A stretch of 63,954 bases of DNA, counting the filler, from Licmophora abbreviata (lineage: Eukaryota): the NCBI GenBank assembly GCA_900291995.1. It is 8 parts of 8 records of this genome, joined end to end, with 100 filler letters (N's around TTAATTAATTAA, not from the genome) between each part and the next. Parts side by side here need not be neighbours in the genome. Positions count along the whole stretch, not along the records: positions 43,244 to 54,970 come from OLMU01004190.1; 7 more parts are not named here. One strand, 5' to 3'. How positions within the stretch are numbered: position 1 is the first letter of the stretch; every line of letters starts with the position of its first letter. Of this stretch, positions 6,949-60,661 are shown piece after piece. Position numbers and translations under genes: made by a program. Below the pieces are notes generated by a model. That model had not been told where the DNA came from and did not search any database. It was given only the letters and a program-made list of their open reading frames with translations.

Positions 6949-7048
6949 NNNNNNNNNNNNNNNNNNNNNNNNNNNNNNNNNNNNNNNNNNNNTTAATTAA
7001 TTAANNNNNNNNNNNNNNNNNNNNNNNNNNNNNNNNNNNNNNNNNNNN
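6949..7048. other. Assembly gap linker (artefact)
   Basis: N44 + TTAATTAATTAA (stops in all six frames) + N44. Confidence 0.98.
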
Positions 7049-8608: not shown

Positions 8609-10596
8609 ATGATTATGCGCCACCATCAGAAACGAAGACCGCTGTTGTCGCTCCTTGCTGTACTTTTGTCGGTACAGTCCATCAAGGCAGGAGTTCGAGA
8701 CGGAACGACATCTGATCCAACGAACGACGAGTACACCGATTACACCGATACCATCACCATCAATTCCATCCAACAGCAACATCGGAGGCTCAATGATCCC
8801 AGTCTTCATACGCCTAAGAGTCCCATTACTGGTGTCGCTCTTGTTACGGACGAGCAAGACACGCAAGATCTGTTCAAGCACGCACAGTATTCCACTCTAG
8901 TAAATGTCGATGAGGTGCCGACCCCCTCCCCTACACACGCCATGGAATTTGTGCTCGATTTGGGCACAAAGAGTCAACAGAAAATCATGACATCCAAAGA
9001 CATGATGAAGTCCTCTACAACTGGTAGAAAAAGCCCGAAGGCGCCCTCATTCAACGACATTGCTCCGAGTTTCGCAAGTGGGGATGGAGAGGCTCCCAGT
9101 GCTTCCAAAGGAAAGAAGACTGCGAAAGCGCCATCATTCATCAGCGCACCAAGCATTGCAATGGACCCGTCCGGNNNNNNNNNNNNNNNNNNNNNNNNNN
9201 NNNNNNNNNNNNNNNNNNTTAATTAATTAANNNNNNNNNNNNNNNNNNNNNNNNNNNNNNNNNNNNNNNNNNNNGCAAGGCACCGAGTACACCGAAAGGA
9301 AATGCACCTTCATTGCCGACGTCTCCGACGGCTGCACCTGTGACTCCTACGGCCTTCGATCCGTTTGGCTCAGATGCCCCATCGGCTCTGCCGTCGACAT
9401 CTACAGCTCCTTCCACGTCTCCCTCATTTTCATCAAGCAAAGCGCCATCTAGAATGCCGGTGACAGTTCCTTCAAATGAGCCATCTTTTGTACCGTCGTT
9501 AGCACCAACGGCTTCACCAGAGCCTTCCGCTTCTCCCTCGCTCGTGCTGAGCAAAACTCCGTCTGGTATGCCATCAACTGCCCCTTCGAATGTACCGTCA
9601 TTGGCTCCATCGTCCATGCCAACGTCTTCGGCGGCCCCTTCTTCCGGACCATCGATGGTACAATCAGAAGTACCATCAGTAATACCAACGACATCAAGGT
9701 CTCCGTCCATTATGCCAACATCTCCACCGACAAATTCGGCTGTACCTTCTTCTAGACCATCAATGGTACCATCAGAAATCCCATCAATGTCGCCAACGAC
9801 GTCGAGGGAGCCGTCCATCATGCCCACATCCCGACCAACAACTTCGGTTGAACCTTCTTCTGGACCATCGATCGCCGCATCTGAAGTTCCGTCAGAGAGT
9901 CCAACAACATCTGGGGCTCCATCGCTCCTACCCACATCCCCACCGACAAATTCGCCGGTACCTTCGTCTGGACCGTCAATGGTACTTTCAGAAATGCCAT
10001 CAATATCGCCATCGACGTCGAGGGAGCCGTCCATCATGCCCACATCCGGCCCGACAACTTCGGTGGAACCTTCTTCTGGACCATCGATCGCCGCGTCCAA
10101 AGTTCCGTCAGAGACTCCAACGATGTCCCCTTCATCTGGACCATCGATAGCGCCGTCCGAAGTTCCTTCAGAGCCTCCCACCTTATCTAGGATTCCGACT
10201 GCCATACCGACCTCCACAACCACAACTTCTGAAGCCCCTTCGGCTAGCCCGACAACTGCAATGGCTCCATCAAGTAGTCCAACGGTAGCTCCGTCATTAC
10301 CGCCTTTCCCGCTCGATATGACAGAGCCCCCAAGCGGCAAGGCGCCGTCTGTAGGAGACGCCCCCAGTGCAAAAGCCCCGTCCGCGAAAGGCATGCCGAC
10401 ATTCAAAGCGCCATCTTCGATATCCGAAGATGACAGTGCCCCCTCCACAGGAAAGTCTTCTTCGAAAAAAGGAAAAGGTGGACCAGGGGGAAAAGGAAGA
10501 TCCAGGGGAAAGGGTGGACCGGGGGGAAGAGGCAGCTCGAAAATGATTCGAAGATCTCGACGAAAGCTCCATAGTACGAAACACTGGCCGACTTGA
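8609..10596 (+). CDS. Secreted Ser/Pro/Thr-rich, Lys-cluster (silaffin/mucin-like) protein, interrupted by a gap
   Basis: Signal peptide, RRL motif and KAPS repeats. Frames on each side of gap 9175-9274 are compatible (..MDPSG|KAPSTPK..). C-terminus GKSSSKKGKGG...RRKL. Confidence 0.75.
9175..9274. other. Assembly gap linker (artefact)
   Basis: N44-TTAATTAATTAA-N44. Confidence 0.98.
9637..10130 (+). repeat. Coding tandem repeat, 108-nt (36-aa) unit, ~4.5 copies
   Basis: PSS(G/R)PS units begin at 9637, 9745, 9853, 9961 and 10069. Confidence 0.85.
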
Positions 10597-14322: not shown

Positions 14323-15823
14323 ATGAGGGTCGCGATGAAAGAGATTGGGAAAGCGAATTGCCGGGAAGAGGTTCCTGCCATCCCTCAGAAACTGTCACGG
14401 CGAAGACCAGCGGTGCTGGTCCTCCTGCTCATCGCAAACCTCTGGTTGGCGTCGTTTAACATTGTTTGGACTCATGTCTCGGGTCGATTGTCCACAGATT
14501 TCTTCGTATGGCTCGACGAAGCAGAAGAAACGGTGTCGTCAGCCACATATCTTCGCGCCTCGGAACCAAAGCCCTCAGTCGTACTTGCCTCCAATACCAC
14601 TGCTCCAAAAGGCAAAATTGCGTTCATTACCTTTTCGCATCTCATGAACGACACCGAACGCTTTGAAGAAATGGTGATCGGCTCCCTTGATACTTGGCTC
14701 GAAAATGATGTTTACTTTGTTGTTCTAACAAACGAGTCAAAGGAACGATATTCCACATTTTGTGAAACGCACACTTCTCACTGCGATCGTATTCGACCGA
14801 TCTGGACGGACTGTCCTGAAGGTAAATTCCGAGAAGGCCCCTGCTGCAAGCAAGAAAAGGGGCTCTTGTACATGTACGAGAACTATATCGACGAGTATCG
14901 GTGGTTTGCGTTCATGGACGACGACGTGTACATTCGCAAGGAGTACCTAGAAGACCATGTTCGTCCACTGCCCTACCATTCGTCCAACATGATTTTGACA
15001 TCAGGTCGTGATGGAAACATAGCAAAATTGGGAAAGGCCGGTTTCATGCGCCGCAGAAGAGCCCCGTATTGGTGCTCGTACGACGAAGACTTTCAGTATC
15101 CATGGGGACAGCCGGTGGTGTATTCCCAGAGCGCACTCCAACGCATCTCGAATGGATTGCGGCTGGGTGGACTGGTGAAACAGTGTGTCGAGTATGACGT
15201 TACGCATGATGTTGGGAATGCTCTGTTTCATTGNNNNNNNNNNNNNNNNNNNNNNNNNNNNNNNNNNNNNNNNNNNNTTAATTAATTAANNNNNNNNNNN
15301 NNNNNNNNNNNNNNNNNNNNNNNNNNNNNNNNNGTATGACGTTACGCATGATGTTGGGAATGCTCTGTTTCATTGGATGTATCAATTGCCGGAGTCTCGG
15401 ATCTTGGTTTTGGACGACGAAAAGCAGATTGGACCTGAGTTTCTCAACTACCACGCATATCATGGAGGTAAGCACTCGTTAGTGCTGTCTGGGTACGCTG
15501 TCGTTTTTCAGTTAGTAACTTATTGTCTTCATCGCTCACTTCGCATTGCAGTCAACAAGGTCACGCGCATGGCGCCCAAGCGCACCGTCGAACAGTTTAA
15601 CATGTCCGCAATTCACGTACGTCGGATCCAAGCCGAGCAAATTCATTCCTCAAAAATTGAGTACACGTTTCACCATGTGAACGGATTCCGCAAAACAAAA
15701 TCCTTTCTTGACCATGGTGATCCGGCCACATGGACGGAATGGCATACCATGCCAGTGACGGACTGCCAGGGACCATACAACGCTACCACGGCGACAGCGG
15801 ACAAGGAGACAACTTCTGGATAG
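14323..15823 (+). CDS. Type II membrane glycosyltransferase, GT31/Fringe-like; split by an overlapping gap; probable intron 15468-15551
   Basis: N-terminal TM and WFAFMDDDVY DxD motif. 42 bp duplicated on both sides of the gap allows an in-frame join. Confidence 0.75.
15234..15333. other. Assembly gap linker (artefact; flanks overlap by 42 bp)
   Basis: 15192-15233 is identical to 15334-15375. Confidence 0.97.
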
Positions 15824-39212: not shown

Positions 39213-39507
39213 CTGAATCCTGCACTGACACCATGTCTTGCGCTTCCGAAGCTGAAGTATGGCGGGAAACTGATGTGAAAGGCCCAATGCGATTTCTGAA
39301 AAGTCAGTCTGTCGACCGTCCCTAGGGGTCAACAATCAACAATCGACAACCGTCCGATTCGAAGGATTCGCGAGCCCGAAGTTTGATGACGACAACGCGC
39401 TGTGAACAGAAAAGCGAGGGACAGTGCTGATCTATTGAATGCAACTTGGCGCCAGCAGACTCACCGAGACGATATTTATACCCTTTCTGTGCTTTCTCGG
39501 TGTCGGA

Positions 39508-40392
39508 ATGATGTTCGTGCGGAGGTCGATTAGTGCCCTGTTGCTTCGAACTTCGAGTACTTCGAATCGAACATTGACCTCTGCGAAATCTGCCAGAGTC
39601 GCCTTGTCATCAGCCGCCAAGACCAACGGCTCGTTTGAATCTCGCCCTTACTGTGTTTCTGGAGCTGATATTCTCAGTTCCTTCTCGTCGCCTCAACACG
39701 GAACCGATGTCGCGTCCGCCATGGAATCACTGGCACGCGCCGACGCGGTCTGCTTTGACGTCGACTCTACTGTCATTAACGAAGAAGGCATCGATGTACT
39801 GGCAGACTTCTTGGGAAAGGGCGAAGCTGTCGCTGAATTGACCCGACAAGCCATGGAGGGCGACACGAAATTTCAAGACGCCCTGGCGGCGCGCTTGAAG
39901 TTGCTCGAGCCATCGAAACAGAGCATCGATGAGTGCCTGCAGGCGACGCCGCTCCAACTGACGCCCGGAGTCGAGTCGCTAGTCGAGACCTTGCATGAGT
40001 TTCAGAAGGACGTCTATTTAGTGAGCGGAGGCTTTCGTGTGATGATTGAGCCGGTCGCCAAGGCGATTTGTGTCGCCAAGTCAAACATTTATGCAAATAC
40101 GATACTCTGGGACGACAACGGGAGCTATACTGGATTCGACGACACGGAACCGACTTCGGCCGACATGGGTAAGCCCAAGGCACTTGAAATGATCCAGGCA
40201 GAGAACGGTTATAACTGCATGGTCATGATTGGAGATGGTGCGACAGATGCGCAAGCTAAGCCACCCGCCAAGGCTTTTATTGGATTCGGAGGTGTCGTAT
40301 CGAGGCAGCCCGTCAAAGAAAAAGCCTGCTGGTTTGTGACGGACTTTGGGGATTTGGAACGCGTTGTGCGAGAATTCAGCAGAGCACAGTGA
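39508..40392 (+). CDS. PSPH: Phosphoserine phosphatase (HAD superfamily) with probable organellar presequence
   Basis: FDVDST, EGID, LVSGGF, GK and MIGDGATD motifs. Confidence 0.95.
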   Translation: MMFVRRSISALLLRTSSTSNRTLTSAKSARVALSSAAKTNGSFESRPYCVSGADILSSFSSPQHGTDVASAMESLARADAVCFDVDSTVINEEGIDVLADFLGKGEAVAELTRQAMEGDTKFQDALAARLKLLEPSKQSIDECLQATPLQLTPGVESLVETLHEFQKDVYLVSGGFRVMIEPVAKAICVAKSNIYANTILWDDNGSYTGFDDTEPTSADMGKPKALEMIQAENGYNCMVMIGDGATDAQAKPPAKAFIGFGGVVSRQPVKEKACWFVTDFGDLERVVREFSRAQ

Positions 40393-41483: not shown

Positions 41484-41583
41484 NNNNNNNNNNNNNNNNN
41501 NNNNNNNNNNNNNNNNNNNNNNNNNNNTTAATTAATTAANNNNNNNNNNNNNNNNNNNNNNNNNNNNNNNNNNNNNNNNNNNN
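41484..41583. other. Assembly gap linker (artefact)
   Basis: N44-TTAATTAATTAA-N44. Confidence 0.98.
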
Positions 41584-41683: not shown

Positions 41684-43656
41684 TTACTCTTGAGCACGGT
41701 CTTTGTTCTTCTCTATAAGGTCAGCGCGTAACCTCTCTACTGGCTCGTGGAGCGTCCCGTCGTCGTTCAGTCGGTACGAGCCGATAAGAAAGGTGGGGAG
41801 CTCTTTAGAGGGGTTTTCTTTTTCTCGCGGAATTAGATGGAGAGTCGATTGAGAGCAGAGAGCTGCCACATGACTGAAACTTGAACCACAGTGGATCAAG
41901 ACATCTGCGTTAATCATGGCATGCAGCGTCGTTGGAGCATCTTCAATTAACAGCTGACAGTAGAGCTTCTGAAGTCGACAACAATCAAGAGCTTTCTGAA
42001 TAGGACCCGTTTTCTCTTCAGCGGTGATGTAGATTATGGATCGAATGCCTTCGAGCGCACTCGTCAGGGTGCCTGCAATATTCGTTTGAAAGGTCGTACC
42101 GTTACCGAGGGAAATATCTTTTGTCCGAATATGCCACACTATCACGAGGGTACTCGGCGGTCGCAAGTCGCGAAGTGCAAAGAATCGTGACCGCTGCATT
42201 GCTTGCATGAAAAATGGTCGAGTCAGCTGGTGTGGGTCGTCCGTTTTATCATGGAACTTGTCCATGAAGCACCATCCACCGTCACACAAGTAGTCCGAGT
42301 AAAAGCGAGTCGTTTTGTTGCATTCGAGCGTGACATTCTCATGACGAAATACAGCGTCCTGGAACTTGCCATCATCAATCTTGATATTGCTGTCGCTGCC
42401 AGGACAGAACTTTCTGATTTCTCGCCTGGTAATGAACACTTCATCGAGAGGGAGAAAGCCCGCGGAAACAAGAAAGTTATAGCGTCCATGATCCCCAGTT
42501 CCCTCCAGTCGATTGACGTCCAACCGAAACGGAGTTCCCGTTGACATTGAGAACATGATACCGAGCACAATATCCCAGACGCGGTGACCAAGTCCAGCAA
42601 GATTGTTTATGCTCACGATGGCGAACGCGCTACACGCAGTGTCGGGGTACCGTGTAATGTTGATGCTGTGTTCGCCGTCTTCTTTCAGACGACGAAGCTC
42701 ATGTTCGCTCCAGCGGTCCTCCAATGCATCAGTGAGGTTCGTCCATTCACAAACGTGCATATATATTTGCTCTTCAACCGACTCGTGCTTGTTCGCCAAC
42801 GACGGTGGAGTGACCGGAACAAGGCCGCTCCTCCGAAACATTGCTGGCGAAAAGGAGAGTGAGGGCGATGTTGTCCCGTGAACAATGATTTGCTCTGGTA
42901 TCCAGCCCACCTCAGAGCCAATGAGAGCCTGGAGCATGACATCCTTGTACGGTCCCTCTAGTAATGCCAGCCGAACCGAGTACTTTGTAATGTTCAACAC
43001 AGGAGCCCAATCATGTACGGACGAAACGACGCCATGATTAAAAACGTCGTCCAAGGAAATTGTCTCCGTTCCCGCGGGAAGCCAAGGAACCAAGGTATCA
43101 CGGCTCTTGTTTTCGGAATATCCCAGCGTCAAGACAACATTTTNNNNNNNNNNNNNNNNNNNNNNNNNNNNNNNNNNNNNNNNNNNNTTAATTAATTAAN
43201 NNNNNNNNNNNNNNNNNNNNNNNNNNNNNNNNNNNNNNNNNNNACATTTTGATCCCTCGGTTCCCACGGACAATAGCTACAATCAGGACACTGCTCTATG
43301 GATGGCCTTGTACAGACTTTATCACGAGATCGTATTATCTGCTCGTCGTCGCCGTCCATGGCACGATAGACCATATCCTGAATTACAGAACGTTGCACCA
43401 CCCTCGATAGGCCCCGAGGGAGGATGCACTGTGCTCTTGCTCCTTCCAGAGAGGGAGCATGACTGCCTGCCGCTACCGGTGTATCTAGTACTGCGACGCC
43501 GTGGAGCAATCGGGGTTTATCGACTGTCGATGATGGTATCAGAAGTTGAGACGGATCCGCAAAATTGTCTTTCTCGTAGTGCCACAACAGTACCAAGTAT
43601 AAAACGCATGATGCTAACGCACATATCTTGCTCATCAGCCGAACAATCTCTCGCAT
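41684..43656 (-). CDS. Type II membrane glycosyltransferase, fucosyltransferase (GT11/GT23)-like; split by a gap
   Basis: GLGHR, VWHIRTKD and ADVLIHCGSSFS motifs. 7-bp flank overlap (ACATTTT) gives in-frame PWEPRDQNVVLTLGYSE. Confidence 0.7.
43144..43243. other. Assembly gap linker (artefact)
   Basis: N44-TTAATTAATTAA-N44. Confidence 0.98.
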
Positions 43657-46791: not shown

Positions 46792-47711
46792 ATGGCCACC
46801 TACATACCAGCAGATCCCTATCGTTGGCCGTTCAATGGCGATCTGACGCCATCCAATACTTGCATCATTGTCATCGGTGAGTTTTCTTTGCGTGTGCGCG
46901 CGGATCAAGCTGTTGCAAATTGGAATTTTGATCGACTGATTAACTTTGTTTTCCTCTCCAGACATGCAAGTCGACTTTTGCGCCCCAGGTGGCTATGTCG
47001 ACAAGATGGGGTACGATATACAGCTCACGCGGGCCCCGATCGAGCCTATTTCCAAAGTACTCGAGTCTATGCGCGCCAAGGGATATCACGTCATGCACAC
47101 GCGGGAGGGACACCGTCCTGACATGGCCGACTGTCCTCCCAACAAGGTCTGGCGAAGTAAACAGATTGGAGCAGAGATCGGGTCGATGGGTCCTTGTGGA
47201 CGTATACTTATCAAGGGAGAACCTGGATGGGACATTATACCCGAACTGGCGCCGATGCCGAACGAAGTCGTCGTGGACAAGCCTGGGAAAGGATCGTTCG
47301 TTGGTACTAACCTGGATCTGATCCTTCGAAGTCGTGGCATCTGTAACATTATCCTTGCCGGTGTCACGACAGATGTATGTGTGCATACGACGATGCGAAA
47401 TGCGAACGATATGGGCTATGAGTGCTTGTTGTTGGAGGTGAGTGAATTCGTGAAGAGTGAGGATGCTGCTCAACGAGGTGATAGAGTGCAGTATCTAGTA
47501 GTACACTCTGCGAAAGCTGGCACCGTCTCTCACCGAACGTGTGACCAATCAAATTTGTTTGTTGTTGTTGTTGTTGTTCTCCTTGCAGGACTGCTGTGCT
47601 GCGACCGATCCTGACAACCACAAAAGTGCCATAAACATGATCAAGATGCAGGGTGGCGTGTTTGGATCGGTGTCTGACTCCAAGGCGCTGATTGCCGCGT
47701 TGTCGGAGTAA
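46792..47711 (+). CDS. biuH: Biuret hydrolase (isochorismatase-like cysteine hydrolase); exons 46792-46876, 46962-47437, 47589-47711
   Basis: [51 protein letters not shown] and [11 protein letters not shown] triad and BiuH-type signature. Confidence 0.88.
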
Positions 47712-47797
47712 TTATTGTACTAATCAGCCGTGTACGTTATTTTATGAACATGGCACATGACGAAACGTTTTCTGCTGAAGCAAATGAGAGAGTGCGT

Positions 47798-49086
47798 TTA
47801 GAGCTCATCGTTTGCTTGTTCTACAATTGGATAAATCTCTCCTTGCACATAATCCACTCTGTACCCAATCTCGTGGAGGGACTTTGTGACTTCATCCACT
47901 GTGAAGTGATAATTGATGCGAGCCGTGTCGTTCCCCACCCCAAATCGTACCGTTCTTTTGCACTTGAACGGAGGACCGTACTTTTTGAGTTGCCTGGCGG
48001 TGGGACGATTCTTTTCTGCATGTCGGACTGCTCTTCGAATACCATCCCAAAACCGCTGTTCTGCGTCCTTGGCTTCCTTCAACTCTTCTTGAGAATACGA
48101 ACACTCGTCACCCGTCTCGCCGTTCTCACTGCGACACTTTCTTGACACCAAATCCAACACGGCAGTCCGATCCTCATCTTGCACGCCCGCCCACAAGGCC
48201 AAACTCTCTGGAAAGTTCGTCACTTGCGTACCGTCGGTCATGGTACGGATGGGCGGACTGGGAACATGACTGTCGTGAAACCACACGGCCGTCACGAGTG
48301 GCACTGCCACATGTTCCAAATCAGTCTTTTGTTGTCGATGTATTTCACCTCGTACAAAATCCTTGACGACTTTGTAGTCATCATCATCGTCGTCGTCGTC
48401 TCCGCGCAGTTCCAGTTGACCCGTGTCGGGTGTAATACTGAGAAAACGTGGTTCGTGGTTGAGGACACTCATGACTTGCCTTGCATCGATAAGGTATATC
48501 CAATACTCGTTGGCATGTTCGTGACATCCACTGGCAAAGACATTACTGTTAATCAGAGGCTGACCGGGGTCGTACTGTGTGTAATTTATAGAATCATACA
48601 AAATACAAATCAGCATCATCAAATATTATAGGACACAGTAGACTGATGCAGACGAGAGATCGTACCGTGTACTGTCTCCAACCCTCCTGCATGACATCGA
48701 GAAATGCCTTGTAGCCTCTCACGAGCGAGCGTCCGAGAAAGATCGCCCTAGATTCATCTTGTTGTCCAGCGTGATAGTCGAGATTGGCTAATAATGATGA
48801 AATGGTGCACGATGATGTATAGTTTTGATGTCAGTTATTCGGAGATTTATGACGACGTGAGATCAGTTTTGAGTGAGTGTTAGGGAGAGTGCGCGTACGA
48901 CTTAGTGTGTGTGGAAGTTGCTTCCCGATAGTGCTTACCATGATCTGGAAAACCGTCTTGCAAGCCGCCGCTCACACCCACCAAGAGGTACTGACGGTCT
49001 TCATCGGGGACAGCCCTCGTCGTCGTTCCAAGCGAACCCCACACAAAGATGACGAGCCAAAGGAAGTGAGTGGGATTACGTCTCAT
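47798..49086 (-). CDS. Unknown ER-lumen protein (signal peptide + C-terminal NDEL); exons 49086-48939, 48787-48666, 48574-47798
   Basis: Signal MRRNPTHFLWLVIFVWGSLGTTTRA. Two GT-AG introns give a ~348-aa product ending ANDEL. Confidence 0.7.
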
Positions 49087-49357: not shown

Positions 49358-50241
49358 ATGGTCACCATGACTTCCTCCACTGCTACGACAGTCGAACTCG
49401 ACATGGAGCCCCACAAGGGGGCCATTGATCTCTCCACGACGGCGCTTATCATCATTGATATGCAGGTGAGCGAGAATCGTACCAAGAGGAAACAAAGCGC
49501 TCTTACGCACAGTACACGCGCGCAAGTCACACGTGTTCGTGTGTACTGAGTACATCTTATCGCTGCTTACAGCAACCGCGTGTCTGACGCATCCCCATTC
49601 TTCTTCTTTTTGTGTCTTTCAACACACAGCGCGACTTTCTGGAAGAGGATGGGTTTGGCGATGTTCTGGGGAACGACGTGAGCAAACTGCAGCGCGCAGT
49701 GGCTCCCTGCAAGGCCCTCTTGGACACGGCCCGTGCATCCAAAAGCCTTGGTCTCATTCTTCATACGCGAGAAGGACATCGGGCCGATATGGCTGACGTG
49801 CATCCGCATAAGAATAATAAGAGGGATGCAGAGGGGAAAGTCCTCAAGAGTATTGGCGAAAAGGGACCGATGGGGCGTATTTTAATTCGGGGGGAGCCGG
49901 GACATGACATTATTCCAGAACTGTATCCGATGGCAGGTGAACCGGTAGTGGACAAGCCTGGAAAGGGATCGTTCTATGCAACGGATCTAGAGGCCATCTT
50001 GTCGGTCCACAAAATTACGACCTTGTTGGTCTGCGGTGTGACGACGGAGGTGTGCGTACACACGACGATTCGGGAAGCCAACGATCGGGGCTTTCATTGT
50101 ATAGCGGTCAGCGACTGCTGTGCTTCCTACATTGACGAGTTTCATCGCGTGGCCATGACTATGATTTCGGCGCAGAACGGATTGTTCGGAAGTGTTACAG
50201 ACTCGGAAAAGGTCATCAAGGCGTTGTCCACAGAAAGTTGA
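49358..50241 (+). CDS. trtA: Triuret hydrolase-like cysteine hydrolase; exons 49358-49465, 49630-50241
   Basis: [54 protein letters not shown] and AQNGLFG. TrtA-type rather than BiuH-type signature. Confidence 0.82.
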
Positions 50242-50483: not shown

Positions 50484-52292
50484 TTACTTGGAAAAGTTGC
50501 TTTGGATGCGAGACAATATATAGTCGCCCGCGGTAATGGGTTCGTGTACTCCATCCGTTTCAATCAATGCCGACTGGTCCGCCTGTGCAAAGAACGCAAT
50601 ACTATAACGCGATGATGGCGGTGTACACTCTTCCGGAGTTGGCATTCGCACACGGTGCAAATTGGAATACAACCTACCGTTGCTCCACCTGGCCAACATG
50701 TCTCCAATGTTCACAGCGATGCCTCCCTCGATCGGATCAATCGGCGTCCAGCGAGCTCCTTCGTTCGACGAAGGATCGCGACGTGGGTTCGAGCAGCATT
50801 CTAGACCGGCTTGACCGACACGTTGGAAGAGCAGCGTGACGCAGGTCCAGTCCGTGTGAGGCCCTGCGCGCCAAAAGATGCGACCGTCGTCGTCGGGCGT
50901 CGTCATTTTCTTGGCCGTCTCGGCATCCATGGGCGTGTAATGAAGCATGCGAAGTGTGCACTGGCCGTCTGGGGCCCATAGACTGTGATCAACGAAAACA
51001 TGGAATGCAGTAAGCTCATGTGGACAAACATGCGGCATGCAAGTCATGCATAAGTACACAAACATTCACACTTACTTGTGCGCCCTCGAGAGTGTTCCAG
51101 GCTTCAAATTGGGACAAGCACGACTTTCCAAGAGGTCCATGAGGCGTTGTGCAACTTTGTGCGTCTTGGTCGCAAGGCCCTCTGCGGCCGAACGAAAGTT
51201 GTCCGGGGCAGTGGGCCACCGGCCGTCCATGACTCCCTCGCGAAACGTAACTTGCATGCTCTCCTTTTGATCGGCTGTTCCTGTGGAAGGACGAACCTGC
51301 GACATCTGTATACGAATACACAGAAAAGCAGAATGTCAGAGTCAAAAAGAGAAGAACTCTCATCCGATGAAAGAGGCCATAAGCAGAGCATACTCGTATG
51401 ATAGTTCCATCTGTCGGCACACACGTACATATTCATACCCCGCATTCAAGTTACGCGCAAAGGGAGACATGGCTTCCTTATCACTCTGCGCAAAGAATCC
51501 AGCCGACGCTTCAAAGGCTGCATCAATGTCGCTCTGCGGAATCCCATGTCCCGTGAGACTGAAGAATCCGACCGTCGTGGCGGCCTTCCAAAGCTGCTGG
51601 GCGATTTCGTCGTCGGTTCCTTTGGACATGTCGATGACAGGAACTGCGTAGTCGTCGTCGCCAGGGACAGCAGCAGCGGCAGCTCCAAGTCCGCTTGCAA
51701 AGAGAGAGCGCTCTGTTTCAATGTCGGCGTTGGCTTGAGACTTGCAGTTGTTGATATTCTCAACATGAGTCTGACATCCTTTCCAGATCCCGCTTTCCTT
51801 GTGAACTTGCATCGCTTCGTCACTAAGCATCGACACGACTTCCATAGGACGCGTCCCCTCCCTTCCCATGGCATAGAGCTGCTCCACTGGGATATCGAAT
51901 CCCCCCGGTCCTGACAATCGCGACAGTTCTTCCGAGGATGCTCCGTAGACCACCCGACTCACACCGGACCAGTAAATCGCACCCGCACACATGACACAGG
52001 GTTCCGTCGACGCGTAGAGTGTACAAGTCTTCCGCTCTACTCGTTCGGAATCAACAGCGGACGCCATCAAGCGCACCGCCTCGACCTCTGCATGACGAGT
52101 GACGTCTCCCGTCCCACCTCGTTCTTTCTTGGCCTTGGATTGATTGTGACATGCGACAAGGACGTTTCCGTCCTGGTCGGCCAAGACGGCGCCAAAGGGC
52201 ATGTTGCCACGTTCGACGGCCTTTTGACTTTCGGCAATGGCCTGGCGAAGGCAGGCTTCATCGTAGGGCCTAGAAGAAGTCGTAGATGACAT
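50484..52292 (-). CDS. Fusion of a cytidine/guanine-deaminase-family Zn domain and a 2OG-Fe(II) dioxygenase (DIOX_N + 2OG-FeII_Oxy); exons 52292-51429, 51305-51076, 50982-50484 (~530 aa)
   Basis: PFGAVL, HAE and STEPCVMC, followed in the same exon by VPVIDM..GFFSLTGHGI. Later HTD, NIGDMLARWSNG, LHRV and RYS. Confidence 0.88.
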
Positions 52293-52738
52293 GCTTCTTG
52301 TCAACAGCAACGCAAATAAGGGAGCAGAACAAGCACAGCACGACAGCCGACAGTCAAGTCCCACCTTGATTTTTGCAATGGAAGACTTCAAATTGACTTC
52401 ACTTTTTCTTCCGAAAGTGTCGTCGAAGTTTGTGAAGGAGTTTGAAGTTTGAGAATTGCGACATCGAGCATGACGTCATGCACGAACACCCATCGTTCGA
52501 GCTCGTATGATATGATAAAGCCCGTGGTAATGGCGTGACTCACTCGACTCGAAACTCTACGTCACTCGTGACTGACTCGTGAATAGGTGTTACGTCGGGC
52601 GCGCGCGCAGTCGCGCCTGTCTCAAATTGAAAATCTCCACAAAATCAAAAATTCACAAAACACCTTCTCAACAATCATTGCAATCAAGCATGGATGTGAT
52701 GTGTCGATGGTCCAAAAGCAGCAGCGCAGCATTACCCC

Positions 52739-55700
52739 ATGTCGTCTTCGAATCATCATCGCCGCCTTCCTCATCACAATCAGAATAGGGATCGAGGTCC
52801 TCGTCCTGATCGTCCTAAATCGTACCAGTCTTCGAATTATTTTAATTCTTATTCCAATCAGAGAGAAATTCACTCCTCCGTGCATCATCGAAACAACGAC
52901 GACTACGGGTACCAAGGACAACAACGACAAAGTAATGTTTGCCGTCCTGACGAGGTCCGCTCTTTTCCTCCGGATCGCTACCCTAGCAATGCAGTAGCAT
53001 CAGCACACGAGACTCGTCGTCGACGCACTCCACCACATGAAGATCGTGTACGAAGAAGAAGCAGTCATCATAACGCGACGGGTCATGGCGACCGTGGAAG
53101 CACTACTGTCGCTACTGCTGCTAGCTTGTCTACACGAAGGTCAAGATGGTCGTCATCCTCCTTCAATGGAGGCGACCACCGCCATCACTCAGGAACAGCC
53201 TCCTTGACGGAAGAGGAAGAAGCTGTTGCGAGGGGTACTGGAAAACGGTGTCGTCTACAATGTCATACTAGTACTAGTACCGAAGAACGGAACGAATCAG
53301 AACCACTAGACGAATTTGGTCGACGCTTGATTCGTCCTCCTAGAAACACTGGTTTGAAGGTGTCGTTGTCGAGAGAGATTGGATCGACGACAAGACTACC
53401 GTCAACGGAACAAGTCATGAGCTCTACTAGCATTGATGACCAGCTGCAACAAGACGTGCCTGTCACGACGGATGATGCTCCCATGAACAATGTGGACATC
53501 GATGACGATGGCAATGATACGCCTGACGGAGGAGAACATGGACACGACGAGCAAACAATAGGAACGGCGGCCGCTGTGGCGGAACAAGGCTGCCCCTTCT
53601 TTTACAATGAAACAGATGGAAAGCCCATGGCATTTTGCTGCGCCAAGTGTCGATGCAGTCCAGAACAACGAACCTTGTTTACAGACGCAATTTCAGTGGC
53701 GGAGGACGAAAATTACTACTATCATCGCCACTGCTGTCACAAGATCAATGAGATGGGAGCGACGCCTTTGCAAAAGGTCTTGGATAGAATCAATGAGCAA
53801 TATGAAAAGGAAGACTTCCACGGCCAATATCCGGCACCCAAGCCAAAGCTTAATGCCATTTCCGAGAGCACGCTGAAGAGAGAATACATTCGAAAACTCA
53901 AGAAGGAGCAGACCAAGTCGGAAAACAATGACGAAGATGCGGATCCTGCAATGCTGCTCGAGACGAATGAACAGTATAATAAGAACCGTCAAAACTTTTC
54001 CAAGGTTGCGAAAGAGCGTGAGAATGATCGTCGTCCAGCTGTAGTATTGGACGCGTTTGCCGGGGTGGGGGCTGCATTGGTCGTGCTCAAGCGTCTCCAG
54101 ATTGCCATGTCCAAGGTTATTCATGTCGAACATGACAAGATTGCAACTCATGTAGCTCGGCATGGTCACGATTATCTGTATAATCCGAAGCTGCAGGACG
54201 ATGGGATTGAGCACGTGTTTTTGCCCAAGTTTGAAGACATCGACGGCGACGTCGATCAGTTTCTGGAGGATTATGGGCGTACGTACCGTTGTTGTGTTGT
54301 GTTGCACCTTGTTGGAGTGACAAGTTTTTGTTTTTGGGGTGGTTTTGGTCTCAAACTCTTTGTACAAACTCTCTCTCTCTCTCTCCTCAGCGATCGACAT
54401 TATTATCGGAGGCCCCCCATGTACGGACTATTCAGCTATAAATGCCAATGCCCAGGGACCCCAGGGCGCTCAAGGGCAGTTCTTGCCTCGCTTCGCCGAC
54501 TTTATTCAGAATGTTCAGGCGAAACAACCGGATCACCCTGTCTACTATTTGATTGAAAATGTCGTATTCATGGACGGACTTGACAACTACAATCTTATCG
54601 AGAATATCACAGGCGTTGTGGAGACGAAACAAGACGCTCTTTACTTTTCTCCGTGTCGAAGACTGAGATCTTTTTGGATCAATGTACGGTAGACAAGTGC
54701 TGATGTATATGTGTCTCAAATTGGAATGCTTGTCTTTTGCTCATCAATCCATTGTTTCTTCGTTTCAGTTTCCTCTCAACGTGGCTTCGCGCGGATTTGA
54801 GGAGTCCGTCCCGCTTCGTCCAAGCTCCTGCTTGCAGGATGGGTGGCAGTTTCCGGGAGAAGGCGTGGAAGAGATCGTACTGTGTAAAGTCAATACGTTC
54901 ATGGCATCGAAAAGCCGTATCAATGACGACCGAATGGTCAAAGTCAGACCCCGTCCTGACGGCAAGTATGNNNNNNNNNNNNNNNNNNNNNNNNNNNNNN
55001 NNNNNNNNNNNNNNTTAATTAATTAANNNNNNNNNNNNNNNNNNNNNNNNNNNNNNNNNNNNNNNNNNNNAGTCAGACCCCGTCCTGACGGCAAGTATGA
55101 ACGAGCCCACTTTTCTGTTCTGGAAAGAGAGCGAATGATGGGATTCCCGGAGGGATACGTCCAAGGCGCGGGTACGTGACGACACGTTTTGAATATGCAT
55201 GCCGTGCGCTTGAGTGGAATTGTAAAGAGACTCATGTGTGTTACTTCTACTACTTTTGCTTTCCCTCCACTCAGTTGCGCACCTGTTCGACGAGCTGTTT
55301 CACAAGGCGCTGGATGTAATGCCATTGCCCGATGAAAGTAAACCCGAGACTCTTTGGAAGAATCGTCTGGATCCAAAGTTTTTTTGTTTCTCGGGAGAAC
55401 CAGTCAAATATGAGGAAGCATACAATGAGAGTGAACAGATCCCCTACGTTCGCGTCCTCATGAGTCCTCCACAAGTCACGGCAACCGTAAGTAGACTAGT
55501 TTGTATCTGGCAATGTTCGTAGTTTGACGATTGAATCTTTTCTCACCGTGTTCTAACGCTCCTTGGCTACAACAGCGGAACTTTTTCAATGCAGAGGACT
55601 ATTCGAAACACCTGCTCGGAAACTCTTTTTCTATTCCAGTCGTCGAATACCTGTTGAAGAATCTCTGCGACATCTTTGCAACGCGCGCATACGACGTCTA

Positions 55701-55779
55701 TAGCTATCCATATCGTTGGGAAACCAACAACAACGAGATCGCGGACGCTGCAACTGAGGGAGTAATGCCTGATGGGTAG
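52739..55779 (+). CDS. DNMT3: C5 DNA cytosine methyltransferase, DNMT3-like; introns 54279-54390, 54684-54768, 55172-55274, 55487-55575; spans a gap
   Basis: Motif I LDAFAGVG, IV GGPPC, VI IENV, VIII RRLRSFWIN, IX ERERMMGFPEGY, X LLGNSFS. Confidence 0.85.
54971..55070. other. Assembly gap linker (artefact; flanks overlap by 29 bp)
   Basis: 54942-54970 is identical to 55071-55099. Confidence 0.97.
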
Positions 55780-56021
55780 ACTACAGTCAATGCAATAAGA
55801 AGGTCGAAACACCGCCTCTATGATAGCATGTGTAGCCCTACATTCGGCATGGATGGAACCTTGTTTGGATGGTGCATCTTCTAGGCTTCCTGTAGACCTG
55901 TCAGAGGCTCAAACTCTGTCTTTCGTATAAGGGCGCGAACAGCAATCGGTTGGATACCACGAGCGGCTGCTCAATGGTCCTGCGTCGTCAAATCACCGCA
56001 TGATCAAACGCACACAAACGA

Positions 56022-56900
56022 CTACTTCATCGCAGGCCCCGCCACGTTGTTGTATCCACCATCGACATGATATGTTTGTCCTGTAATTCCAGACGCCGAA
56101 GCCAAGAATGTCACCGTGTCAGCCACCTCCTGCGCCGTCACATTGCGTTTCAACGGAGCTCGTTCCTCCATATCCTGTCGCATGTCGGAGAATCCCTGAA
56201 TGCCCCGTGCCGCCAGTGTATTCAGCGGTCCCGCACTAACGCAATTGACACGAACGCCAGCACTATCACGACCACTCCCTAGTTCCAAGGCAAGTCCTCT
56301 TACGATGGCTTCTAAGGACGCCTTCGCGGGTCCCATGACGTTGTAGTTTTGCACGGCTCGGGTCGCTCCCAAATAGGACAGAGCCGTCAGTGACGACAAC
56401 GAGGAGCTCGTAGTAGGACTAGCAGTCAGCAGCGTCAAGGATTCTCGGGCAAGTTCCAAGAAGGAATAGGCCGAGATTTCGTGTGCTTGCAAGAAATCTT
56501 CTCGGGACGTCTGCAGCAGACTTCCTTCCTTCATGCTTTCGGGTGGTGCATAGGCAATTGAATGGACAATGGCGTCGAGTGATGGTGGTACAGATGCTGA
56601 CGAGTGTACGTTGGAAAGCAATTCAGGAAGCTGCCCTCGAAAGACTAGCGGGAGATCCGTTGTGATATTGCACGGTAAGGCATGTAAGAATGGAGGGTCA
56701 TGACGGCCCTCTGATGCTGCCTGCTGCTTCTTCTTCTGTTCGGTGATAAGCCTCTCGACTGCCGATCGAAAGCGGTCGTCGCGATAGGTGCACACGACGT
56801 TGTAGTCGTTCTGTAGAAGCGATTCGACGCAGGCCCACGCGACACTGCGTCCATTGGCGACTCCCATGACCAGGGCAGTCTTCCTATGAGCAACAGACAT
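56022..56900 (-). CDS. fabI: Enoyl-ACP reductase (FabI-type SDR)
   Basis: GVANGRSVAW, VHSIAYAP, ISAYSF, LSYLG..YNVMGPAKASLE and SAGP.NTLAA. Confidence 0.93.
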   Translation of the reverse strand: MSVAHRKTALVMGVANGRSVAWACVESLLQNDYNVVCTYRDDRFRSAVERLITEQKKKQQAASEGRHDPPFLHALPCNITTDLPLVFRGQLPELLSNVHSSASVPPSLDAIVHSIAYAPPESMKEGSLLQTSREDFLQAHEISAYSFLELARESLTLLTASPTTSSSLSSLTALSYLGATRAVQNYNVMGPAKASLEAIVRGLALELGSGRDSAGVRVNCVSAGPLNTLAARGIQGFSDMRQDMEERAPLKRNVTAQEVADTVTFLASASGITGQTYHVDGGYNNVAGPAMK

Positions 56901-56972
56901 GCAACAGAGCCAGTCGGGAGCGTAGGAACAGGATGGTCGACTCTAGAGAAAGTTGCTCTCAGTCTGAGAGCC

Positions 56973-58806: not shown

Positions 58807-59349
58807 TCATCTACCTACGTGTAACAATTCCAGGCAATGTTGAACGTCCCGTGAATCATCCCATCCGCCAAAGGCTGTCATAGCTTCTCTTTGTTGTTGT
58901 CCTTGTACTTGTTGTGCATACAGTTCGGTGCCATGAAACGACTGCAACAGGGTCCTTCCAGGGCGCCCTCGCAAGACTGCCGCATTCCTAGTACTCCCAA
59001 CACCATAGTGCATGCCCGTACTTCCAATGTGTTGTACTTGCGGTATACTCGGCATCAAGACGGCACTTGGAAGTTTCTGATTGTTGTTGTCTGCTGACAA
59101 TGCATGCACCAAACTCCAGTCCCAATTGTAATCATTGTAGGTACAATAGGCGTGCATCACACTGCTGCTGGCAGAGCCCGACGACACTAATTGGTGCAGC
59201 ATGTGCGTTGAAATCACCATGGGTCCACTGATAAATTCACCACGGACCCAAGCGTGTGGGAGCCGTCGTTGCACGAGGGGAGACAGGACAGCAGTGGGGT
59301 CCAGGGTAAGTCCAAGGAACAATGATTGATGTTGATTGTTGTGATTCTC

Positions 59350-59387
<38 letters not shown>

Positions 59388-60126
59388 GGAGTATGCTCAT
59401 GCCACTTTGGAGTGTTTGGTAAATGGTCGGTGCCACAAGATAGTCTTCTTCTAGAAACAAAAAGGCATCGTAGGATGGACCATGATCATCGCCACTACTC
59501 CTAGCGCCACCAAACTTGTCCACCACGGTTCGTAGCATCCATGTAAAGTGATGCTTGGCACAGGACACTGATGCACTACTACTACTTGTGGTGGTAGTGT
59601 CTTTACGACGACACAGATTTGCAAACGGATGAATCAGTTCCTGCAGGACGATATTCGGATAGTGTCGTCGGACTGTCATGAGGACATCTTTCATGGCTCT
59701 TACGCTGTCGGTGCCATCGTGAGAAATAATAATGGTTGGCCGCGGATTCTGCTGTACAAGGAAATCAGAAGACTGCAACAGACTGTCAAGGATGCTCTGA
59801 CGAAAGTAGTCGACGCGGTCGTGCACCAGGTAGACGACGGGGATGCTGTAGGAGGTAGTAGTAGTAGTAGCAGCAGTCTGAGGATGATACACGGTGGTTC
59901 GAATAATGATTGCAAAAACAAGGACAAGAACTAGGAAACACCCGGTGGCCAAGACAATCCATCGTGTAGGAAGGGTGAAGGCTTGTGTATGCAGTCGGTG
60001 ATGCGGACGATGCAGTGATGAAGGCGAACGACGACGCCGATGAGAGCGTTGTGGCTCTTGTTCCTCGCGAGCAGCAGCGCCAGTCGCAGGTCGTCTATGC
60101 TGCAGGACGAATGATGACGAATCCAT
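58807..60126 (-). CDS. MGAT2: GT16-like beta-1,2-N-acetylglucosaminyltransferase II
   Basis: Type II TM; VHDRVDYF, ISHDG, KHHFTW, FLEEDY, CTYNDYNWDWSL and HIGSTGMH. Confidence 0.85.
59350..59388. repeat. (TTG)13 microsatellite encoding polyQ in the MGAT2-like gene
   Basis: Uninterrupted ttg run. Confidence 0.9.
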
Positions 60127-60561
60127 GGTTCCTGTAGCGGTACATTTTAGTGCAAACGATTTTCAATTTACTAGGAGTATGACAAGGTTATGGGCTACTG
60201 GGGGGAATGGTGATACATTGCCTCGCGGCGAGCGTGGCTTCCTCCCCCCGTTGGGTGACGTGGACGGAGTGGGGACGGCGCGTGTATCATATGTGTAGCG
60301 CAAGGTACCAGTGACTCTGTAGAAAGTTGTTGTGGGATATATTGAAGGGATACACGTCGGTGTATAGAGGATCGAGTAGTACAATGGCGTAGGAAGACAG
60401 GTTATGAACGTGAGGGCAGATAATTCATAAACGATACAAAACGTCTTCGTTTGATGTACTATGATGGCAAACTAACTGAGAAAGAATCTAATTTCTTCCG
60501 GTCAGAAACCAAAGAAGATGACTTGCAATTGCAAACTGATCTTTTTCAATATGAAACACAA

Positions 60562-60661
60562 NNNNNNNNNNNNNNNNNNNNNNNNNNNNNNNNNNNNNNN
60601 NNNNNTTAATTAATTAANNNNNNNNNNNNNNNNNNNNNNNNNNNNNNNNNNNNNNNNNNNN
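60562..60661. other. Assembly gap linker (artefact)
   Basis: N44-TTAATTAATTAA-N44. Confidence 0.98.

Follow-up and report, generated by a model that had tools for sequence, protein, structure and literature searches.

Here, we examine a stretch of 63,954 nucleotides from Licmophora abbreviata (GenBank assembly GCA_900291995.1; eight parts joined end to end, hereafter the window) and a gene within it whose single product joins a CDA-fold zinc deaminase to an Fe(II)/2-oxoglutarate (2OG) oxygenase. The window is eukaryotic in style, and the named relatives of the fusion protein are diatoms. The fusion gene occupies the minus strand and is convergent with a gene for a TrtA-type hydrolase, the two stop codons lying 242 bp apart; a BiuH-type gene stands on the same strand as the TrtA-type gene (Table 1).

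Table 1. Coordinates of the fusion gene, its exons, introns, domains and motifs, and of the two neighbouring hydrolase genes, counted along the whole window (A1, alignment of 48 fusion sequences; A2, alignment and profile of 21 deaminase-domain sequences; NcT7H, Neurospora crassa thymine-7-hydroxylase)
Feature	Position	Strand	Support
Fusion gene, deaminase/2OG oxygenase, entire coding span (530 aa)	50484..52292	-	Model aligns with 48 orthologues
Exon 1 (aa 1-288): deaminase, linker and DIOX_N within one open frame	51429..52292	-	
Intron 1: 123 nt, GT..AG, phase 0	51306..51428	-	Junction ...NAGYEY/MSQVRPS... gap-free against orthologues
Exon 2: 230 nt, aa 289-365, final codon split	51076..51305	-	
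Intron 2: 93 nt, GT..AG, phase 2	50983..51075	-	Junction ...SRAH-N-LWAPDGQ... agrees with orthologues
Exon 3: aa 365-530 and stop TAA (50484-50486), oxygenase catalytic core	50484..50982	-	
CDA-fold zinc deaminase domain (aa 8-172)	51777..52271	-	PF00383 1.7e-21; domain alignment A2; profile match to Msd 5e-28
HAE motif (aa 67-69): H67 zinc ligand, E69 proton shuttle	52086..52094	-	H and E invariant in A1 and A2
PCVMC motif (aa 98-102): C99 and C102 zinc ligands	51987..52001	-	Invariant in A1 and A2
Inter-domain linker (aa 173-216), part disordered, part helical	51645..51776	-	AlphaFold2 model of the Seminavis orthologue; low conservation
DIOX_N, oxygenase N-terminal part (aa 217-275)	51468..51644	-	Pfam PF14226 4.1e-14
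2OG-FeII_Oxy jelly-roll core (aa 394-498)	50583..50897	-	Pfam PF03171 2.1e-18
HTD (aa 407-409): H407 and D409, two of three iron ligands, followed by W410	50850..50858	-	H, T, D and W invariant in A1; aligned to NcT7H H214/D216/Y217
H474, distal iron ligand (LHRV)	50655..50657	-	Alignment with orthologues and NcT7H
RYS (aa 490-492): R490 and S492, 2OG C5-carboxylate binding motif	50601..50609	-	Aligned to NcT7H R286/S288
TrtA-type isochorismatase-like cysteine hydrolase, exons 49358-49465 and 49630-50241	49358..50241	+	Pfam Isochorismatase 1.7e-36
BiuH-type biuret hydrolase-like gene, exons about 46792-46876, 46959-47437 and 47589-47711	46792..47711	+	

Splicing of the three exons yields a 1593-nt coding sequence whose sole stop codon is the terminal one, and the outer coordinates of the gene are exact. 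The minus-strand frame that contains exon 1 is free of stops from 51360 to 52475 and holds the ATG at 52292, HAE, PCVMC and the start of DIOX_N. Pfam places PF00383 and PF14226 together in exon 1, bearing out an earlier, sequence-only reading of this DNA in which a complete deaminase motif set ran on into DIOX_N without a stop. The same reading assigned HxD...H and RxS to the two downstream exons; both introns do have GT..AG borders and every motif is present, but all of them fall in exon 3 and none in exon 2. Moreover, an alignment of the spliced protein with orthologues, transcript-derived ones included, shows no gap at either junction.

Both halves have the features of their families. In the exon 1 product, dCMP_cyt_deam_1 (PF00383) covers residues 11-117 at 76.4 bits (cut-off 25), while the oxygenase domains PF14226 and PF03171 score 53.7 and 66.9 bits (cut-offs 27.3 and 23). 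HAE and PCVMC, invariant in the 48 fusion sequences as well as in the 21 deaminase-domain sequences, place the first half among the CDA-fold zinc deaminases, and H407, D409, H474, R490 and S492 place the second in the DIOX_N/IPNS-like class of Fe(II)/2OG oxygenases. Across both halves of the 48-sequence alignment, the catalytic H, E, C, C, H, D, H, R and S never vary. The deaminase family additionally has a GPGGFD motif of its own and an invariant C-terminal E...H...W (alignment A2). An AlphaFold2 model of the Seminavis orthologue has a mean pLDDT of 85.9, falling below 50 at residues 176-185, and forms a helix at 184-201. As both domains fall in well-known superfamilies, the protein is no new kind of enzyme.

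The fused architecture is widespread among relatives. Among 50 longer homologues of exon 1, 48 carry PF00383, PF14226 and PF03171 together; these proteins are 505-603 aa long, and the longer homologues are 39-63% identical to exon 1 and 53-66% identical over the spliced protein. A search for homologues of near-equal length added seven further full fusions among the 120 matches listed, a set in which 29 others are open reading frames (ORFs) of about 350 aa that comprise deaminase plus DIOX_N, cross the domain junction and are most simply explained as first-exon reads on eukaryotic contigs. In all, 55 protein clusters show the fusion, transcript-derived diatom sequences included, and the named sources are Seminavis robusta, Cyclostephanos tholiformis, Chaetoceros sp., Entomoneis sp. 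and Attheya sp. The fusion transcripts Chaetoceros MMETSP0200 and Entomoneis MMETSP0725 are marked ‘type:complete’, so fused mRNAs exist in relatives; together with the homologue counts, this upholds the view that the fusion is no artefact of a gene model. On related contigs, the fusion is intron-free in L005, L006 and L007 and has introns at other positions in L003, L004 and L020. Since intron positions vary between diatoms while the fusion is retained, the join is older than the introns.

In a tree of the oxygenase domain, all 16 fused sequences fall in one clade (support 100), with 16 metagenome loci on that side; the tree is a quick IQ-TREE run on 83 rows chosen from 219, with SH-aLRT support only, rooted on one paralogue row. 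Five of those metagenome loci (L003-L007) are themselves fusions, and no deaminase match was found in the remaining loci of the clade, including L010-L012, L014, L017, L021, L024-L026 and L028. The fused clade and the bacterial orthologues meet in an unresolved fork, from which the direction of any gene transfer is not readable.

Public names for the family are generic, comprising ‘UPF0676 protein C1494.01’, ‘hypothetical protein’, paired COG names at JGI and automatic generic names in the ESM Atlas. The fission-yeast gene SPCC1494.01 is tabulated beside uricase among genes induced by nitrogen limitation in the available text of one study (PMC4614384), a faint hint at most, as its link to the fusion family rests on a source's naming. 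A literature search of listings and main-text passages returned no description of the fused architecture, of the bacterial gene pair or operon described below, or of a function for the family, which is uncharacterised.

With the family alignment as the query, scans recovered 80 metagenome loci and 80 loci from named bacterial genomes. The bacterial loci recovered have stand-alone oxygenases, 36-50% identical to the diatom half, and 50 of the 80 bacterial genome loci also contain a homologue of the deaminase half. At 13 loci (eleven Marinomonas, one Marinobacterium and one record titled Rhodanobacter), the deaminase is a separate ORF directly upstream on the same strand, and these adjacent pairs are preceded by genes for an NMT1/THI5-like binding protein, an ABC ATPase and a permease. 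Matches to residues 13-528 in Marinomonas, Marinobacterium and the Rhodanobacter-titled record had the appearance of full bacterial fusions; the ORFs show two adjacent genes, and this candidate was dismissed. Likewise, in the GC-rich locus L050, tblastn returned a single segment, yet a stop codon and a 12-nt spacer separate the halves in the same frame. ORF inspection found no bacterial fusion among the loci recovered. Because the bacterial halves neighbour each other as separate genes in the same order, the diatom protein can be seen as a Rosetta-stone join of two coupled catabolic steps, and the proposal of a bifunctional enzyme for consecutive steps gains from both the clustering and the shared order.

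The separateness of the bacterial halves, along with the stop codon bridged by tblastn in L050, also lends something to the idea that the apparent diatom fusion is a read-through of adjacent genes or a pseudogene. However, exon 1 has no stop between its domains, the catalytic residues are intact throughout, relatives supply 55 fused protein clusters as well as complete fused transcripts, and the spliced model aligns with orthologues over its full length, making this explanation extremely improbable.

Genomic context was counted over 122 loci, namely 42 metagenome loci of at least 5 kb and the 80 genome loci, using our own ORF calling and tblastn matches at E <=1e-12 that cover at least half of the query in one segment and pass identity thresholds; many of the loci are closely related, so the counts are not independent events. 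A purine-catabolic gene (XdhB, HpxO, PuuD, HIUase or OHCU decarboxylase) occurs in 27 of the 122 loci, an NMT1-type binding protein in 62 and a PRK12393 amidohydrolase, 8-oxoguanine-deaminase-like, in 43. For example, in Marinomonas arctica (L128) the operon stands between XdhC/XdhB/XdhA and OHCU decarboxylase/HIU hydrolase/HpxO (an FAD-dependent urate hydroxylase), all of which score above their NCBIfam cut-offs. On the oxygenase tree, the purine link is scattered over no fewer than three clades, represented by the Marinomonas group, by L045, L047, L048 and L064, and by Rhodobacteraceae L153. One metagenome locus holds an 8-oxoguanine deaminase above cut-off (683 vs 532), and others hold a true guanine deaminase.

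The CDA deaminase is present in 59 of the 122 loci and a canonical guanine deaminase (GuaD) in nine, never both together. This pattern would be expected if the CDA partner were simply the guanine deaminase, an identification that we set aside on finding a canonical GuaD elsewhere in all ten operon-bearing genomes. Many alphaproteobacterial loci (L086, L091, L093, L094, L096, L101, L103, L105 and others) have a second oxygenase paralogue, about 30% identical, directly downstream, and some of them add a PRK07583 ‘cytosine deaminase’, an FAD_binding_4 oxidase, two flavodoxin-like genes and a creatininase-family gene; these loci look like a larger heterocycle-degradation cluster.

With the single window sequence as the query, the top solved match of the deaminase half is guanosine deaminase 7DBF (2e-16), followed by deoxycytidine deaminase and TadA. 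With the A2 profile, Mycobacterium smegmatis Msd ranks first at 101 bits, followed by TadA variants (86-88), guanosine deaminase (86), guanine deaminase (84) and yeast cytosine deaminase (47-54). The CDA-type deaminases of guanine (PDB 1WKQ/1TIY) and of guanosine (7DBF) are alike in fold and motifs, and their type of reaction would suit the purine context; they outrank Msd for the single sequence and fall below it with the family profile. Msd (PDB 5XKO/5XKQ/8WLV-X), a free-nucleobase deaminase, shares the CDA fold, HxE, PCxxC, N46 and a tryptophan after PCxxC, but is a single-domain protein with E27, replaced by methionine in the diatom protein, and with a di-proline gating loop; GPGGFD and the C-terminal E...H...W are particular to the present family. 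The substrates of Msd include isoguanine, 5-azacytosine and s-triazine scaffolds; the triazine is bound by E27 and N46, W95 comes from the partner subunit, and P122-P123 form the gating loop (PMC11963756). The diatom protein keeps N46 as N49 and W95 as W108, has M31 in place of E27 (H or Q in bacteria) and has no di-proline, which sets it outside the Msd type proper. In CDA-type guanine deaminases (bGD/NeGD), a second catalytic acid (E143 of NeGD) acts alongside a C-terminal loop that closes the site (PMC11963756). The present family has an invariant E159, and D133, within GPGGFD, is conserved in eukaryotic forms; either residue may correspond to the second acid, though the HMMER alignments to guanine deaminase structures end before this region.

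The TadA matches raise another option, an editing deaminase of TadA/APOBEC type joined to a nucleic-acid oxygenase and acting on bases of tRNA, RNA or DNA. TadA structures reach 88 bits with the profile, JGI labels relatives ‘tRNA(Arg) A34 adenosine deaminase TadA’, and weak APOBEC/SNAD matches appear in Pfam. These APOBEC-type matches stay below the gathering scores, however, and against a cut-off of 150 bits the TadA model NCBIfam NF008113 gives the window protein 64.6, the Seminavis orthologue 60.3 and the bacterial partners 46-63. Furthermore, the bacterial orthologues lie in operons with solute importers and catabolic enzymes, and the oxygenase belongs to the small-molecule DIOX_N/IPNS class, being neither AlkB nor TET. 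We regard action on nucleic acids as very improbable.

For the oxygenase half, queried with the Seminavis orthologue, the best solved sequence match is Neurospora thymine-7-hydroxylase (T7H; 1.1e-17 over aa 214-507), and T7H is also the best fold match of the AlphaFold model of that orthologue (Foldseek 8.4e-24, TMt 0.77). N. crassa T7H (PDB 5C3O-5C3S) resembles the diatom half in its DIOX_N and 2OG-FeII_Oxy fold, HxD...H, RxS and base-sandwiching residues; in contrast, identity is about 25%, T7H, which acts on thymine, 5hmU and 5fU, has no deaminase domain, and its context is thymidine salvage, whereas the bacterial context of the present family is purine. In T7H, the free base sits between F292 and Y217 (the latter replaced by F or W in certain species) and is held by N87, R190, E122 and N294 (PMC4787775). 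By HMMER alignment, the diatom protein retains F292, R190 and N87, has W for Y217 and Q for both E122 and N294, and the columns of the base pocket are invariant or nearly so within the fusion family. These residues would fit a planar free base as the substrate without proving it, and residues of the F292 and R190 type may be common in the whole enzyme class.

These likenesses to T7H favour a role in pyrimidine salvage, in which the deaminase would convert 5-methylcytosine or cytosine to thymine or uracil and the oxygenase, a true T7H, would oxidise the 5-methyl group stepwise, as in fungal thymidine salvage. Additional points in favour are that yeast-type cytosine deaminases are CDA-fold relatives and that the bacterial importer includes an NMT1/THI5-like binding protein, from a family that includes pyrimidine binders. 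The identity to T7H is nonetheless low, with two of the residues holding the base replaced; yeast cytosine deaminase is a much weaker match than Msd (47-54 bits vs 101); and the bacterial contexts hold purine rather than pyrimidine genes. Amidohydro_2, presumably the Pfam family of iso-orotate decarboxylase, is absent from the 36 recurrent-neighbour cluster representatives annotated from bacterial genome loci. A DNA C5-methyltransferase-like gene, divergent from and adjoining the fusion gene, would seem to point to 5-methylcytosine, but none of the 160 related loci examined has a homologue and we rejected it as a clue. Overall, pyrimidine salvage appears improbable.

A functional parallel to the proposed second step is XanA, the fungal xanthine/alpha-ketoglutarate dioxygenase, which converts xanthine to urate in a 2OG-dependent, molybdenum-free reaction and coexists with xanthine dehydrogenase (XDH). 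XanA is a TauD-family (TauD/TfdA) protein, and at E <=0.01 Pfam finds no TauD match in the fusion protein, only PF14226 and PF03171 for the oxygenase. The diatom oxygenase is thus at most an analogue of XanA and no member of its family.

The locus therefore encodes a conserved two-domain fusion with intact catalytic motifs, fused transcripts in relatives and linked counterparts in bacteria. That it is a two-step enzyme of nucleobase catabolism is probable. Our favoured reading, to which we give somewhat better than even chances, is that one polypeptide combines two active enzymes acting in succession on a free purine-like amino-heterocycle, as the fused form of a marine proteobacterial operon pair, for the recovery of nitrogen. 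In the first step, the N-terminal zinc deaminase would hydrolyse the exocyclic amine of a guanine-type 2-amino-oxo base or close analogue, releasing ammonium and an oxo-heterocycle. The C-terminal oxygenase, with its T7H-like base pocket, would then hydroxylate this product where it projects from the pyrimidine-dione ring. If the pyrimidine-dione is bound as thymine is in T7H, the imidazole ring would face the iron, a geometry that we infer. For a xanthine-type product, the target would be C8, the sole C-H of xanthine, giving a urate-type product; in a methylated base, the substituent at that place would be attacked and the methyl group lost as formaldehyde. The diatom enzyme would serve nitrogen recovery beside the TrtA-type and BiuH-type pair, and its bacterial counterpart is an operon of the gene pair and an ABC importer in marine Proteobacteria, in several lineages placed within purine-catabolic islands. 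The free-base substrate, the order of the steps, the purine class and the site of oxidation are what we infer from the comparisons above, and for a purine-type substrate in particular the balance tips only slightly in favour.

Several observations weigh against this reading. No purine gene was found within reach in 95 of the 122 loci. A canonical GuaD, of the amidohydrolase type, scores above cut-off in all ten operon-bearing genomes (5/5 Marinomonas, 5/5 alphaproteobacterial), and a canonical XdhB occurs in all five alphaproteobacterial operon-bearing genomes tested. The nearest solved oxygenase, T7H, uses a pyrimidine, thymine, and no purine, and it only narrowly outranks TraH and further members of the family (GA2ox3, F6'H, SpoC and TropC). 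Msd is described as not taking guanine, lacking the second acid (PMC11963756). The adjacent TrtA- and BiuH-type genes are left unexplained by a urate-type product, and nothing in the sequence fixes the substrate, as the sequence-only reading had itself cautioned. In one Marinomonas genome, an internal TGA divides the match to the canonical guanine deaminase (G005:C7:980426-981627, minus strand) in two.

As canonical GuaD and XdhB coexist with it, a plain guanine to xanthine to urate module would be redundant in bacteria, and in the genomes tested the module is no replacement for GuaD and XDH. Plain conversion of guanine through xanthine to urate is accordingly unlikely. With Msd as the nearest deaminase, the same coexistence makes a guanine analogue (iso-, oxo-, methyl-, aza- or diamino-) at least as likely a substrate as guanine itself.

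A related proposal moves further from ordinary purines, with the enzyme cleaning up or using aza- or triazine-type bases (5-azacytosine, ammeline-like), isoguanine, methylated purines (by oxidative N-demethylation) or pterins and passing them into ordinary catabolism. The substrate range of Msd, which takes isoguanine, 5-azacytosine and s-triazines rather than guanine, speaks for it, as do the retained N49 and W108, the dedicated importer of the module and the coexistence of canonical GuaD and XDH with the operon in every genome tested, which suggests another substrate. The commonest neighbours are moreover uncharacterised, including the PRK12393 amidohydrolases, the PRK07583 ‘cytosine deaminase’ and the creatininase-like and FAD-oxidase genes. 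On the other side, the di-proline loop of Msd is missing, its E27 gives way to M in diatoms and to H or Q in the bacterial forms, and the proposal singles out no candidate compound; it also overlaps our favoured reading, from which it differs only in the base used. We consider such a specialised role rather unlikely.

The adjoining hydrolases suggest a further possibility. TrtA and BiuH are distinguished at TrtA positions 35, 41, 134, 160, 187 and 205 by F/N/A/E/Y/I versus Y/Y/S/D/T/V, and TrtA is also defined by a D/K/C triad and Q202, the change of A134 to S being neutral (PMC7948467). The TrtA-type gene of the window scores 213 bits to TrtA 6XIX vs 200 to BiuH and has TrtA-type residues at four of the six positions (F35, N41, E160 and Y187), with S for A134 and L for I205; Q202 is of the TrtA type, and the catalytic D lies in exon 1 (DMQ). 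The BiuH-type gene scores 264 bits to Rhizobium BiuH 6AZO vs 162 to TrtA and has BiuH-type residues at all six positions; one of its exons, scored over 161 of 221 model positions, gives 294 bits with the NCBIfam BiuH model (NF050097; cut-off 370). The neighbours thus form a BiuH-type and TrtA-type pair, in keeping with the earlier suggestion that they are hydrolases relevant to biuret and triuret.

Bacterial trtA-biuH operons are described as comprising TrtA, BiuH and AtzF (PMC7948467), and the two isochorismatase-like neighbours in the window reproduce the TrtA/BiuH pair of the Herbaspirillum and Rhizobium operons. In the main text of that paper, the word ‘oxygenase’ occurs 0 times and ‘deaminase’ once, about carboxybiuret (PMC7948467), whereas here the pair stands beside a deaminase-oxygenase fusion in a eukaryote. 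The available text of the same paper states that the biological origin of triuret is unknown (PMC7948467).

Linkage to these hydrolases recurs in algae. The diatom contig L020, whose fusion is about 67% identical, also has a convergent TrtA-like fragment. On L024/L026 and L028, an unfused oxygenase of the same clade lies beside a tandem BiuH-TrtA fusion protein (617 and 533 bits vs the cut-off of 370). These loci also contain a third isochorismatase, amidohydrolases resembling TRZ/ATZ and PRK07583, and MFS carriers. The tandem proteins (L024:4221-5663, plus strand, and L028:7126-8751, minus strand; also in L026) are 481 and 542 aa long and have a BiuH-type domain followed by a TrtA-like one, the BiuH score falling in two stretches. 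In the window itself, tblastn found none of the amidohydrolase or MFS partners of this algal cluster. One bacterial locus, L129, combines the deaminase, oxygenases, BiuH (416 bits) and a TrtA-like gene within 18 kb. Its Rhodobacteraceae BiuH (L129:14648-15658, plus strand) is 70% identical over 159 aa to the diatom BiuH-type gene, a closeness unusual for a bacterium and a diatom and compatible with gene transfer.

On this basis, the fusion might deaminate and oxidise a purine- or triazine-like base whose ring opens to triuret, biuret or a close acyl-urea, from which the TrtA- and BiuH-type hydrolases would yield allophanate and ammonium. The adjacency in the window, its recurrence in L020, the tandem fusions and TRZ/ATZ-like amidohydrolases beside same-clade oxygenases, and L129 all favour this scheme. 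Of the 80 bacterial genome loci, however, just one has BiuH within 10 kb, and of ten operon-bearing genomes just one yields an above-cut-off BiuH score at any position; neither BiuH nor TrtA was found in the available flanks of the diatom-like loci L003, L004 and L006. Moreover, the window showed neither a cyanuric acid hydrolase nor a ring-opening enzyme, we know of no oxidative C4=C5 cleavage of urate by this oxygenase class, and, given the 70% identity to the Rhodobacteraceae gene, the diatom adjacency could be a relic of block transfer. A link of this kind between the fusion and the hydrolases is doubtful, and a route feeding triuret or biuret, raised by the sequence-only reading, does not hold as a general property of the module.

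A specific version would be a uricase-independent route by which phytoplankton draw nitrogen from the purine ring, in which a guanine-type base is deaminated, the oxopurine is oxidised repeatedly in the manner of T7H, C4=C5 is lost and the N1-C2-N3-C4-N9-C8-N7 chain is freed as triuret, which TrtA and BiuH would take to allophanate. By our reasoning on atom connectivity, urate stripped of C5-C6 corresponds exactly to the triuret chain. We consider this version a long shot. It may apply to algae, where gene linkage is its sole support, and the bacterial data count against it as a general rule. The counts for GuaD (10/10), XDH (5/5) and BiuH (1/10) make a plain conversion of guanine to urate less likely, and likewise an obligatory route through triuret.

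Purines, and guanine in particular, have been described in part of the literature as nitrogen stores of microalgae, and the available text of a Thalassiosira metabolic-model paper presents that diatom as lacking a guanine deaminase. The present comparison defines a widely distributed module of a CDA-type deaminase and a T7H-like oxygenase, which is found in many marine Alpha- and Gammaproteobacteria with a dedicated importer and as a single protein in diatoms. It offers a clonable candidate for a missing step of nucleobase nitrogen cycling in phytoplankton and bacteria. Algae repeatedly show it linked to TrtA and BiuH, a pair for which the origin of the natural substrate is described as an open question, and the module allows a direct test of an enzymatic origin of triuret or biuret. 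Were the triuret route true, triuret would gain its first enzymatic source and purine catabolism a new end-game; were the substrates plain guanine and xanthine, the addition would be modest, a molybdenum-free analogue of XanA.

Other features of the window were also recorded. The DNA cytosine-5 methyltransferase-like gene extends over 52700-55780 on the plus strand, with FAGVG, like motif I, in a 618-aa ORF and GGPPC...ENV in the following ORF (54321-54692); Pfam gave no match for the 618-aa ORF, and the gene is interrupted by the N run at 54971-55070. In the interval from the BiuH-type to the TrtA-type gene (47678-48631), both strands have ORFs of 155-275 aa without a Pfam match. Seven runs of N, each a pair of 44-base runs with 12 bases between, occupy 6949-7048, 9175-9274, 15234-15333, 41484-41583, 43144-43243, 54971-55070 and 60562-60661. 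Finally, a HAD-like hydrolase (39439-40392, plus strand), an enoyl-ACP-reductase-type SDR (56022-56942, minus strand; 1.5e-58) and an MGAT2-like glycosyltransferase (58807-60162, minus strand) are encoded in the window, without evident link to the fusion gene.

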